Below are positions 1 through 2,318 of a stretch of 2,318 bases of DNA, piece by piece; the stretch's first letter is position 1, and every line of letters starts with the position of its first letter. Origin of the DNA: Escherichia coli (GTDB taxonomy: Bacteria; Pseudomonadota; Gammaproteobacteria; Enterobacterales; Enterobacteriaceae); the NCBI RefSeq assembly GCF_003334255.1, contig NZ_QOWU01000136.1. The stretch is one strand, 5' to 3'. A program made the position numbers and the translations under genes. The notes under the pieces were generated by a model, which worked only from the letters and a program-made list of their open reading frames with translations, was not told where the DNA came from and did not search any database.

Positions 1-2007
1 GGCGGTGGTCAGCAGGCGGCTGTTCTCACCGCTTCCACTGGTCAGGCGCAGACTGAAGCGCACGCCCTTCACCACCCTCGGCGTGTCCCATTTCGCCAGC
101 GCCAGATACTGGCTGTCAGCTGCGCTCACCTCCACCGTCAGGTGCTGCACTGCCGGTGGGATGACGCTGTTCAGGGAGCCTGACTGCGGCTCAAAGCGGG
201 CACCGTTATCCACGATGGCTTCTTTTTCCGGTACGTGCTGCACCGCCGTGATGGCAAAGGTGCCGTCCGTGTTTTCCCGGATGGCCACACAGCGGAACAG
301 GCGACGGCGCAGTGACGGCAGGGAGAGTCCCCACACCCCGTATGTCTCCACACCATCAGGCAGGGTACTGACCTGTATCCGGTCCGGCGCGGGGTGTGCG
401 GTGATGTCCACACTCACCGGCTTACCGCTGCCGTTAATCAGGTTCACCGTGGCGGCACCTGTCCCCGGAAGTGTCACTTCACGGTCCAGCGTCAGGGTGC
501 GGGTGGCAGCATCAATGGACAGGACACGTCCGCCGGTCAGGGTCCCGGCATAGTCATTATCACAGATTTCAATAATGTCACCGGGTGTGTGCCGCAGCCC
601 CTGAGACCCGAGTGTGAAATCCACCGTCTGCGTTTCCAGCAGTTCGGTCTTTATCACCCACAGCCCGGCACGGTGGGCCTGACCGCGGCTGGTACAGCCG
701 AACGCGTCCATCTTCAGCAGGTTGCGTCCGTAGCGCAGTATGGCTTCCGGGTCTTCCACCAGTTCCGTGGAGGTCTGCCAGCCGTTCTGCGGGTCGGTGT
801 AATTCACCTCCACCGCCGTGTGCCGGTCCTTCAGGGCACTGAAGCTGTAGCGGAACCCCACGCCGTTATCATCCACCACCACATCGCTGTTGGTGTACGG
901 CCACACCACATCCGACGGGCGGTCCTGAACGAACGTCAGCGTCTGGCCGTTCCATACCGGCATACAGCGCATCGCCGAGCAGAAATCACTGAGAACGTCC
1001 CACGCCTTACGCTGTTGTGCCAGGTACGCATTAAAGGTCATCCGCGGCTCTGTGCCCCCGAAACCATCCGGGACCGTCTGGTCGCAGTACTGCCCGATGG
1101 CATACAGCGCCCACTTGTCCACATCCGCCGCCCCCAGACGTTTTCCCATGCCGTAGCGCGGGTGAGTCAGCATGTCCCACAGGCACCAGGCCGGGTTGTT
1201 GCTGTATGCCGGTTTCAGACTGCCGTCCCAGATACCACTGTACGTGCGTTTTTCCGGGTCATAGTTTGACGGCACCTGGATGATGCGACCGCGGATATGG
1301 TAGTTCACCGTCATCTGCTGGCCGCCGAACTGCTCCGCATCCACCTGCAGCCCCACAATGGCCGTGTTCGGGTAGCACTGTTTCACATCGATGATTTCGG
1401 TGTATGACGACCAGAGCGTCTTATTCTGCAGCTGGTCCGTGGTGCTGTCCGCCGTCTCCCTGACCATCCGGATGTTAAAGGGGCGGGGAGGCAGATTATC
1501 CAGAATCACCGAGGCCAGGAACTGTGAGGTGGTCTTGCCGTTAATGGTGACATCCTTTTCTGTCACCCAGTTACCGTTACGCTGTAACTGAATCAGCAGA
1601 CGGACAGAGGACGGATTACGGTCACCCTTTGACGTGGTCTCCACCAGTGACTGCACCCCGAAGGTCACCCGCAGGCGGTCAATGTTCGCTGACGTAATGG
1701 TGCGTGTCACCGGTTTTGCCCTGGTCACTTCCACACCCAGTACAGTTTCAGAGCCGGAGGACTCAAAGCCTTCCGGTGGTGTCTGCTCCTGCTCCCCGGC
1801 GCGCCAGACCGCGGTCACACCGTGTATCACGGGATTACCGTCCGTGTCCGTCAGCGGGGTTTTGTTCACCAGAATACTCTGCAGGCCTTTCACCGGACCT
1901 TCAATGGGTCCCTCACCAATCGCATCAATCACGCTCATCATCTGCGTGGATTTGAGATTATCCTTCGCCTCACGAGGTGTGTGTGCCTTACCGCCACCTT
2001 TACCCAC
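1..2007 (-). CDS. J: Host specificity / tail tip protein J homolog (lambda gpJ-like), N-terminal 669 codons; partial, 3' end lies beyond position 1
   Basis: Reverse-complement translation from GTG (2007..2005) is open for all 669 codons to the window edge (2007 is divisible by 3). The product begins MGKGGGKAHTPREAKDNLKSTQMMSVIDAIGEGPIEGPVKGLQS..., which closely matches the lambda J N-terminus as I recall it (MGKGSSKGHTPREAKDNLKSTQLLSVIDAISEGPIEGP...). Further lambda-J-like blocks follow, e.g. WSSYTEIIDVKQCYPNTA, PAYSNNPAWCLWDMLTHPRYGMGKRLGAADVDKWALY, LFRCVAIRENTDGTFAITAVQHVPEKEAIVDNG. An alternative in-frame GTG start at 2022..2020 would add 5 codons. Confidence 0.92.
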   Translation of the reverse strand, partial: MGKGGGKAHTPREAKDNLKSTQMMSVIDAIGEGPIEGPVKGLQSILVNKTPLTDTDGNPVIHGVTAVWRAGEQEQTPPEGFESSGSETVLGVEVTRAKPVTRTITSANIDRLRVTFGVQSLVETTSKGDRNPSSVRLLIQLQRNGNWVTEKDVTINGKTTSQFLASVILDNLPPRPFNIRMVRETADSTTDQLQNKTLWSSYTEIIDVKQCYPNTAIVGLQVDAEQFGGQQMTVNYHIRGRIIQVPSNYDPEKRTYSGIWDGSLKPAYSNNPAWCLWDMLTHPRYGMGKRLGAADVDKWALYAIGQYCDQTVPDGFGGTEPRMTFNAYLAQQRKAWDVLSDFCSAMRCMPVWNGQTLTFVQDRPSDVVWPYTNSDVVVDDNGVGFRYSFSALKDRHTAVEVNYTDPQNGWQTSTELVEDPEAILRYGRNLLKMDAFGCTSRGQAHRAGLWVIKTELLETQTVDFTLGSQGLRHTPGDIIEICDNDYAGTLTGGRVLSIDAATRTLTLDREVTLPGTGAATVNLINGSGKPVSVDITAHPAPDRIQVSTLPDGVETYGVWGLSLPSLRRRLFRCVAIRENTDGTFAITAVQHVPEKEAIVDNGARFEPQSGSLNSVIPPAVQHLTVEVSAADSQYLALAKWDTPRVVKGVRFSLRLTSGSGENSRLLTTA

Positions 2008-2011
2008 AGAA

Positions 2012-2019
2012 TCCCCCTT
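2012..2019 (-). promoter_or_regulatory. Shine-Dalgarno sequence for J (AAGGGGGA, 4 nt before the GTG start)
   Basis: Minus-strand sequence reads AAGGGGGA-TTCT-GTG; purine-rich and complementary to the 16S rRNA 3' end. Supports the GTG at 2007 as the start. Confidence 0.5.
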
Positions 2020-2049
2020 CACCGTCCGCTGCCGGACACTGTTGATGTA

Positions 2050-2080
2050 TAAAAACAACAGGCACCCCGGAGGGTGCCTG
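2050..2080 (-). terminator. Rho-independent terminator, minus-strand orientation, in the I-J intergenic region
   Basis: Minus-strand RNA reads CAGGCACCC-UCCG-GGGUGCCUG followed by UUGUUUUUAUAC: a perfect 9-bp GC-rich stem (2059..2067 with 2072..2080), a 4-nt loop, then a U-rich tract (2050..2058). On the plus strand the hairpin is not followed by a T-tract, so it is orientation-specific. Confidence 0.7.
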
Positions 2081-2118
2081 CATCATGACGGAATAAAAAT
2101 TCTGAATATCTTCACATT

Positions 2119-2146
2119 TTCACAAACTGACTGTGGCGCGTATAAT
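2119..2146 (+). promoter_or_regulatory. Sigma70-type promoter, plus strand: -35 TTCACA (2119..2124), 16-bp spacer, -10 TATAAT (2141..2146)
   Basis: Perfect consensus -10 hexamer TATAAT and a 5/6 match to the -35 consensus TTGACA with 16-bp spacing. An AT-rich UP-element-like stretch lies upstream (gaataaaaattctgaatatc, 2091..2110). Predicted transcription start is near 2153. Confidence 0.55.
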
Positions 2147-2152
2147 TTCGCT

Positions 2153-2248
2153 GCGTTAGTGTTTTTTCTGCCCGAGTAACAAAAACAACTCCTTAACTCT
2201 AATCTTTGTCTGTCCCCGCAGCTCCGCGATCACTGCGGGATTTTTTTT
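2153..2248 (+). ncRNA. Candidate small non-coding RNA (about 95 nt), antisense to the tail operon, in the I-J intergenic insert
   Basis: Bounded by the plus-strand promoter (2119..2146) and the plus-strand intrinsic terminator (2215..2248). No ATG and no ORF longer than 6 codons between them. Contains a CA-rich stretch (UAACAAAAACAACUCC, about 2177..2192) and an AU-rich stretch before the terminator, as is typical of Hfq-associated sRNAs. Prediction from sequence only. Confidence 0.45.
2215..2248 (+). terminator. Rho-independent terminator, plus-strand orientation
   Basis: CCCGCAG (2215..2221) pairs with CUGCGGG (2233..2239) as a 7-bp GC-rich stem around an 11-nt loop, followed directly by 8 consecutive T (2241..2248) and further T-rich sequence. 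On the minus strand the hairpin is preceded by A-rich and followed by non-U-rich sequence, so it is plus-strand specific. It ends 8 bp before the convergent I stop codon. Confidence 0.7.
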
Positions 2249-2255
2249 ATTCTTT

Positions 2256-2318
2256 TTACCCCTGCCGCCCGATAACCACGACCTTTCCGCCCCCGCCTTC
2301 ATCACGGGTACTGATGTC
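2256..2318 (-). CDS. Tail assembly protein I homolog (lambda gpI-like), C-terminal 20 codons plus stop; partial, 5' end lies beyond position 2318
   Basis: Reverse-complement frame starting at 2318 reads DISTRDEGGGGKVVVIGRQG then TAA (2258..2256). This resembles the C-terminal end of lambda gpI as I recall it (...EISTADEGDGGQVVVIGR). GC-rich coding-like composition stops abruptly at this stop codon. Position directly upstream of J fits lambdoid gene order. Confidence 0.6.
   Translation of the reverse strand, partial: DISTRDEGGGGKVVVIGRQG

Follow-up and report, generated by a model that had tools for sequence, protein, structure and literature searches.

The AT-rich segment between tail genes I and J of an Escherichia coli prophage is very probably a copy of the known small RNA gene pasB

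Lambdoid phages carry independent transcription units termed morons, of which lambda bor and lom are examples. Their prophages also encode small RNAs (sRNAs). In EPEC O127:H6 E2348/69, five prophage sRNAs have been tabulated (Table S6 of Pearl Mizrahi et al. 2021, PMC8550237). PasB (pathogenicity-associated sRNA B) is an RNA of 83 nt encoded on the minus strand of prophage PP6 (NC_011601.1, 1466343-1466261), between E2348C_1436 and E2348C_1437, and its 5' end was assigned by read coverage together with band size (PMC8550237). It was verified by Northern blot, its stability depends on Hfq, its level is higher in the non-activating (LB) condition, and RIL-seq assigned it 37 interactions with RNAs encoded elsewhere (PMC8550237). 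More recently, PasB was placed within an operon of structural phage genes, 1,158 hits to it were counted across Escherichia and Shigella, and the function of the Pas sRNAs was described as not elucidated (Zhu, Shabalina and Storz 2026, bioRxiv 10.64898/2026.05.13.724894). The same authors cite the Rfam accessions RF02702 and RF02703 for AgvB and AsxR, two further prophage-encoded sRNAs.

We analysed a window of 2,318 nt of E. coli DNA (contig NZ_QOWU01000136.1, assembly GCF_003334255.1); "the window" denotes this whole stretch, and all positions refer to it. Most of it is the 5' part of the tail-tip/host-specificity gene J (1-2007, minus strand), recognised from its translation and from the gpJ annotation of homologous RefSeq loci. 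The gene starts with a GTG codon at 2007-2005, where E2348/69 and lambda have ATG, encodes the N-terminus VGKGGGKAHTPREAKDNLKST... and runs off the window. At the other end lies the 3' end of the tail assembly gene I (2256-2318, minus strand), represented by its last 21 codons; the translation closes with ...GGGGKVVVIGRQG (...VVVIGRQG) and the stop codon is at 2258-2256. The matching E. coli loci in RefSeq are labelled 'tail assembly protein' and 'gpJ'. The gap between the two genes (2008-2255) measures 248 bp, against 60 bp in lambda (I end 15444, J start 15505) and 61 bp in Gifsy-1, which bears out the original prediction of about 250 bp in place of the few tens found in lambda. The gap had also been described as more AT-rich than its flanks, and indeed its GC content is 45.2%, compared with 60.3% in the coding sequence of J and 61.9% in I. 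The drop is confined to 2088-2255 (39.9%); the J-proximal part, 2008-2087, is at 56.2%.

The AT-rich part of the gap (about 2088-2255) is very probably a copy of pasB, a prophage-borne sRNA gene antisense to the late operon. Three observations identify the + strand unit as a pasB allele. Firstly, the 23-nt probe used to detect PasB on Northern blots (AATCCCGCAGTGATCGCGGAGCT; PMC8550237) matches the window exactly at 2220-2242, with 0 matches expected by chance. Secondly, the synteny is conserved: E2348C_1436 is I (ending at 1466255) and E2348C_1437 is J (starting at 1466496), with a gap of 240 bp. The unit of the window likewise lies between I and J, antisense to them, with its 3' end beside the I stop codon. 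This stop is found 7 bases past the PasB U-run in the window, 5 nt from the PasB 3' end in E2348/69, and at most about 12 bases away from the PasB terminator in every locus with a readable flank. Thirdly, the window and the E2348/69 pasB locus align colinearly from promoter through terminator, with about 4 substitutions and one 4-nt indel relative to the annotated 83 nt (~90% identity). A scan of the window found no Rfam family covering the PasB unit. The element is already known and not new, and its observation here does not amount to a discovery.

The unit possesses its own predicted transcription signals. A consensus scan found a single promoter site, a sigma-70 promoter on the + strand (2119-2146) with a -35 box TTCACA (2119-2124), a 16-nt spacer and a -10 box TATAAT (2141-2146). 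It agrees with the consensus at 11 of 12 positions, 9 of 2000 shuffled gaps reach an equally good match, and the promoter is also called in the PPompW phage. The Rho-independent terminator (2215-2248, + strand), for which the scan gave a call at 2223-2239 followed by a T8 run, is composed of a GC-rich stem of 7 bp (CCCGCAG 2215-2221 with CUGCGGG 2233-2239) and a U8 tail (2241-2248), that is, the 3' stem-loop and poly-U end expected of PasB. The original prediction had given the gap a promoter and two opposed terminators; all of these are present, but only the terminator of the + strand belongs to the unit.

Upstream of the promoter, conservation among variants delimits an A/T-rich block (2088-2118, + strand) that forms the left edge of the PasB module. 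Within the spacer 2082-2118, 23 of 37 columns are invariant, also where the sequence to the left of ~2088 is unrelated. This block contains a CRP-like palindrome, TCTGA-N6-TCACA at 2101-2116, which is one base off the CRP core. The site (2098-2119: AAT TCTGA ATATCT TCACA TTT) is nearly invariant and abuts the -35 box, and the half-site pattern has 1 match in the window for 0.10 expected by chance. Its centre lies at about -44.5 from the predicted start, the canonical position being -41.5, and its conservation is not specific, since the whole upstream block is conserved. Neither PMC8550237 nor bioRxiv 10.64898/2026.05.13.724894, the two papers on PasB recovered by a literature search, mentions a PasB promoter or CRP. 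PasB is more abundant in LB than in the activating condition, which is based on DMEM; this difference would fit catabolite control through this putative CRP site, which we regard as a lead and not as a finding.

The limits of the module were examined in a set of variants. A scan of IMG/VR with the exact pattern of the PasB terminator yielded 101 stretches which, together with the window and fetched loci, gave 43 unique junctions and 24 unique PasB variants; the terminator stem is invariant in this set because its sequence served as the search pattern. The module 2088-2255 is kept as a block across the 43 unique junctions, including those with unrelated J-proximal segments. The gaps fall into a short class of 239-254 bp, to which the window belongs, and a long class of 340-344 bp (for example phage PPompW_132418), in which the sequence from I to ~2088 is conserved and unrelated sequence takes the place of the J-proximal part. 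There is thus a mosaic or recombination breakpoint at about 2088. The left edge of the PasB module was placed there because long-class conservation ends at this point, and it coincides with the GC step. The long class is the commoner of the two, and its unrelated J-proximal segment of ~180 bp has a hairpin of its own (860-1040 in the long-class locus L106).

The module is also better preserved than its surroundings. Among the junction variants, the major-base frequency is 0.91 in the upstream block (2082-2118), 0.97 in the -35 and -10 hexamers, 0.96 at the PasB 5' end and 0.94 in the region of the CUCCUU motif (2187-2196), compared with 0.61 in the J leader and 0.75 in the first 53 nt of the J coding sequence. 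Column entropy ranges from 0.15 to 0.6 in the module, versus 0.8-1.2 in the J leader and J 5' coding sequence. The leader (2008-2048, minus strand), which contains a purine-rich ribosome-binding stretch GAAGGGGGA at about 2013-2022, varies more than any other part of the gap, with a mean column entropy of 1.21 over the 43 unique junction variants. Not all lambdoid I-J junctions have the extended spacer: it is missing from lambda, Gifsy-1 and the lambda-like phages HK630, DE3 and cdtI, whose I-J span is ~190 bp shorter. These module-less phages are only ~73% identical in I and J, and a search for a near-isogenic empty site that would give the exact insertion ends consequently found none. The heptamer TGATGCA, common to the window and lambda, was considered as an insertion mark and rejected; it is lost in other PasB variants and is probably a chance match.

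Of 5,426 complete E. coli genomes, 1,791 contain a match to the gap, at up to 8 places per genome and with a best identity of 92.9%; 147 phage records, mostly of Stx-converting phages, match it too. The PasB allele of the window is nearest to the variants L017 and L015 and identical to none of the other 23. The type strain of E. albertii carries the PasB module. Searched in one genome per species, the exact PasB terminator gave no match; a looser 16-base pattern (ATAATTTCNCTGCGTTA) gave mostly chance matches, E. albertii being the only true one among the matches listed, and its match in Enterobacter asburiae is not PasB. Two Desulfobacteraceae-type MAGs (Deltaproteobacteria; L120-L149 and L162-L186) carry the same pattern on dozens of their contigs, presumably as part of an unrelated dispersed repeat that shares the short string by chance.

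These results support the original reading of the insert as a moron, an independent transcription unit within the late tail operon: related phages have its flanking genes side by side, a promoter and a terminator of its own are predicted, its composition differs from that of the flanks, and its homologue is expressed. No ORF is conserved across the variants, contrary to what a protein-coding moron would show. By analogy with the EPEC RNA, the element is an sRNA moron, whose product would be a non-coding, Hfq-dependent RNA and not a protein. In the DESeq2 table for E2348/69, the baseMean of pasB is 482, against 4.8 for I and 15.0 for J (PMC8550237), and since baseMean is not length-normalised the contrast per base is far larger. 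The log2 fold changes of pasB are -6.79 and -2.39, one in each sheet of the table (PMC8550237). We infer from this homologue that the allele of the window is probably expressed as well.

Promoter and terminator, alignment, published coordinates and fold together predict a PasB primary transcript of ~96 nt (2153-2248, + strand). The 5' end reported in EPEC corresponds to about position 2169, which would give ~80 nt here, while the promoter-predicted start, ~2153, lies ~16 nt further upstream. This mismatch may reflect an under-representation of the 5' end in read coverage, or processing after the U-run. Position 2169 directly follows a U-run whose length differs among variants (2153-2169). The predicted fold comprises a weak 5' stem, formed by the U-run and an A-rich stretch, a mostly unpaired body and the terminator. 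The body (2187-2214, + strand) is a candidate seed region and carries CUCCUU at 2189-2194, which is complementary to the Shine-Dalgarno sequence. Pairing within the body involves 2193-2197 in the minimum free energy structure, including the last two bases of CUCCUU, and 2195-2197 in the centroid, so the motif is fully unpaired in the centroid only. The RNA as a whole is not unusually stable (z -1.2). With the PasB variants, RNAalifold supported the terminator alone, and found neither covariation nor a consensus 5' stem.

Together, these features suggest how the unit would work. The promoter at 2119-2146 would fire on the + strand, against the late tail operon, and produce an RNA of ~80-96 nt ending at the terminator (2215-2248) that abuts the I stop codon. 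By homology with PasB of E2348/69, this RNA would be transcribed from the prophage in its repressed state, when the tail genes are silent, would be stabilised by Hfq and would pair in trans with host and accessory-genome mRNAs. Pairing would most likely take place through the unpaired segment that separates the weak 5' stem from the terminator, with its CUCCUU; as this motif is anti-Shine-Dalgarno-like, PasB may occlude the ribosome-binding sites of its targets with the assistance of Hfq. For the window PasB we infer both the seed position and the target RNAs. The portion of RIL-seq Table S3 covered here contains one PasB pair.

PasB could instead act mainly in cis, pairing with read-through late transcripts and thereby causing their cleavage or uncoupling the expression of I from that of J; leaky tail-gene expression would then be damped in lysogens, or the dosage of J tuned during lytic growth. 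The RNA has perfect complementarity to the late mRNA between the I and J cistrons, its gene always lies antisense to the late operon, next to the I stop, and Pearl Mizrahi et al. draw its convergent overlap with the 3' region of I as '(> <) >' (PMC8550237). We nevertheless consider a mainly cis role unlikely, given the 37 RIL-seq interactions with RNAs encoded elsewhere (PMC8550237) and a cis partner that is normally absent, the tail genes being essentially untranscribed in the lysogen. A cis role is compatible with the trans role that we favour.

The second terminator of the original prediction is a hairpin on the late strand (2049-2081, minus strand), detected by both terminator scan and folding, with a stem of 10 pairs, a UCCG loop and a following UGUUUUUAUA; the scan call covers 2081-2058, followed by TGTTTTTATA, and the fold has a z-score of -4.6. 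It is a separate element beside J and not part of the PasB insert: it lies in the J-proximal segment of normal GC content and is absent from long-class junctions. The latter (PPompW-type, L106 ~908-945) have a different strong late-strand hairpin instead (z -6.5), and stable late-strand hairpins are also found in lambda (L004 ~765-790, z -2.8) and Gifsy-1 (L107 ~558-585, z -4.6), both devoid of PasB. All four I-J junction types examined have, upstream of J, a stable late-strand hairpin that is GC-rich, closes on a loop of 4 nt and is followed by a U-rich tail. The simple terminator scan gave no call on the lambda and Gifsy-1 hairpins, and the term terminator is therefore secure for the window hairpin only. 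Within the short class, the stem changes read on the minus strand are C-G to U.G at two positions and C-G to U-A; the same single changes read on the + strand are A.C mismatches. Pairing is thus kept on the late strand only, which points to selection on the late-strand RNA. This hairpin could be a terminator for polymerase that is not antiterminated, or an mRNA-stability element.

An overlapping hit of cmscan to STnc100 (RF02076; minus strand, 2130-2049) was rejected. Its score is 24.3 bits (E = 0.012) for a gathering score of 47, and it skips 127 of 206 model positions, aligning the late-strand hairpin/terminator and a short 5' stretch; we treated it as a sub-threshold match driven by the terminator. 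No minus-strand promoter was detected upstream of it.

The CRP-like site and the late-strand hairpin could be united with PasB in a single scheme, in which PasB would be a catabolite-controlled, dual-mode RNA: the putative CRP site would couple it to cAMP, and it would act in trans on host mRNAs and in cis on the late mRNA at the I-J junction, where with the late-strand hairpin it would gate production of the tail-tip protein J. This idea, which appears neither in PMC8550237 nor in bioRxiv 10.64898/2026.05.13.724894, seems to us quite unlikely.

We judge it very unlikely that PasB is an AgvB-like anti-sRNA, or sponge, in which a CA-rich stretch (AACAAAAACAAC, 2178-2189) would imitate the target sites of GcvB and so titrate it away. 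Prophage anti-sRNAs of such logic do exist in EHEC (Tree et al. 2014, PMC4104026), and the main variant group largely conserves the CA-rich motif. However, the predicted 5' stem takes up part of the motif, the L027 and L001 variant groups have other sequence in its place, and no gcvB::pasB chimera occurs among the top sRNA-sRNA pairs of the activating-condition RIL-seq sheet, in the portion covered here. AgvB and AsxR are moreover 51-60 nt long and map to the PR' moron site rather than to the I-J gap (PMC4104026), and neither has an Rfam match in the window. AgvB itself, the first guess suggested by the CA-rich motif, was rejected on these grounds of locus, size and lack of an Rfam match.

That the insert is a protein-coding moron, specifying a small late-strand peptide such as MKINVKELFLLLGQK... 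(a 'hypothetical protein' in some phage records), is hardly credible. Small minus-strand ORFs are present in many variants and are annotated in phages 1720a-02 and PhiR12_1, and there is an AAGGAG motif on the late strand. Yet the ATG is deleted in the window, leaving a GTG-start ORF alone; L019 and L080 contain no ORF of at least 12 aa; changes in the length of the A/T runs shift the frame and create at least 4 different C-termini; divergent variant groups encode unrelated peptides; and both promoter and terminator serve the opposite strand. The 49-aa ORF at 2156-2305 and the 'MKINVKELF...' peptide were discarded as candidates, being unconserved and shifted in frame between variants. Hypothetical-protein ORFs at this place (L001 1650-1802, L002 1624-1722 and window 2156-2305, minus strand) are probably a mis-annotated sRNA locus.

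Finally, inert mosaic filler left by tail-module recombination, with chance matches to a promoter and a terminator, is a highly improbable account of the gap: lambdoid tail regions do have a mosaic structure, with a recombination boundary here at ~2088, but an 11/12 promoter match is rare by chance (9/2000 shuffles), the block is better conserved than the neighbouring J leader and J 5' coding sequence, and the homologue is a verified, abundant RNA, so that published Northern and RNA-seq data already contradict this reading (PMC8550237).

The copy of pasB identified here indicates that a reading of sequence alone can recover a real prophage sRNA gene hidden inside a structural operon, in this case one that RefSeq annotation misses and for which Rfam holds no model. 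We recommend pasB as the annotation for the I-J gap in Stx-type and related lambdoid prophages; it is present in about one third of complete E. coli genomes. What we add to the known PasB is small: a CRP-like site, conserved ahead of the promoter, and a hairpin that recurs on the late strand. The anatomy of the locus (the boundary at ~2088, the promoter, the possible CRP site, the 5' end mismatch, the candidate seed and the separate hairpin) provides a starting point for experiments.

Compared with PasB of E2348/69, the unit of the window has the same I-J slot, antisense orientation and promoter hexamers and an identical terminator, and differs by a deletion of 4 nt at ~2205, an extra base in the 5' U-run and one more T in the terminator tail. 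STnc100 is linked by Zhu et al. to PasD and not to PasB (bioRxiv 10.64898/2026.05.13.724894). With AgvB and AsxR of EHEC prophages (PMC4104026), PasB has in common that it is short, prophage-encoded, Hfq-binding and expressed in the lysogen, with a variable 5' part and a conserved terminator; the genes of these anti-sRNAs, however, lie downstream of PR' and Q, whereas pasB lies between I and J, their sequences do not match that of PasB, and a sponge role of PasB would be hypothetical. Like the classical lambdoid morons (Juhala et al. 2000, cited in Tree et al. 2014), the element is extra DNA between otherwise adjacent genes, with its own promoter and factor-independent terminator, a deviant composition and, as judged from its homologue, expression from the repressed prophage. 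It departs from them in its product, which would be a non-coding sRNA where theirs is a protein.
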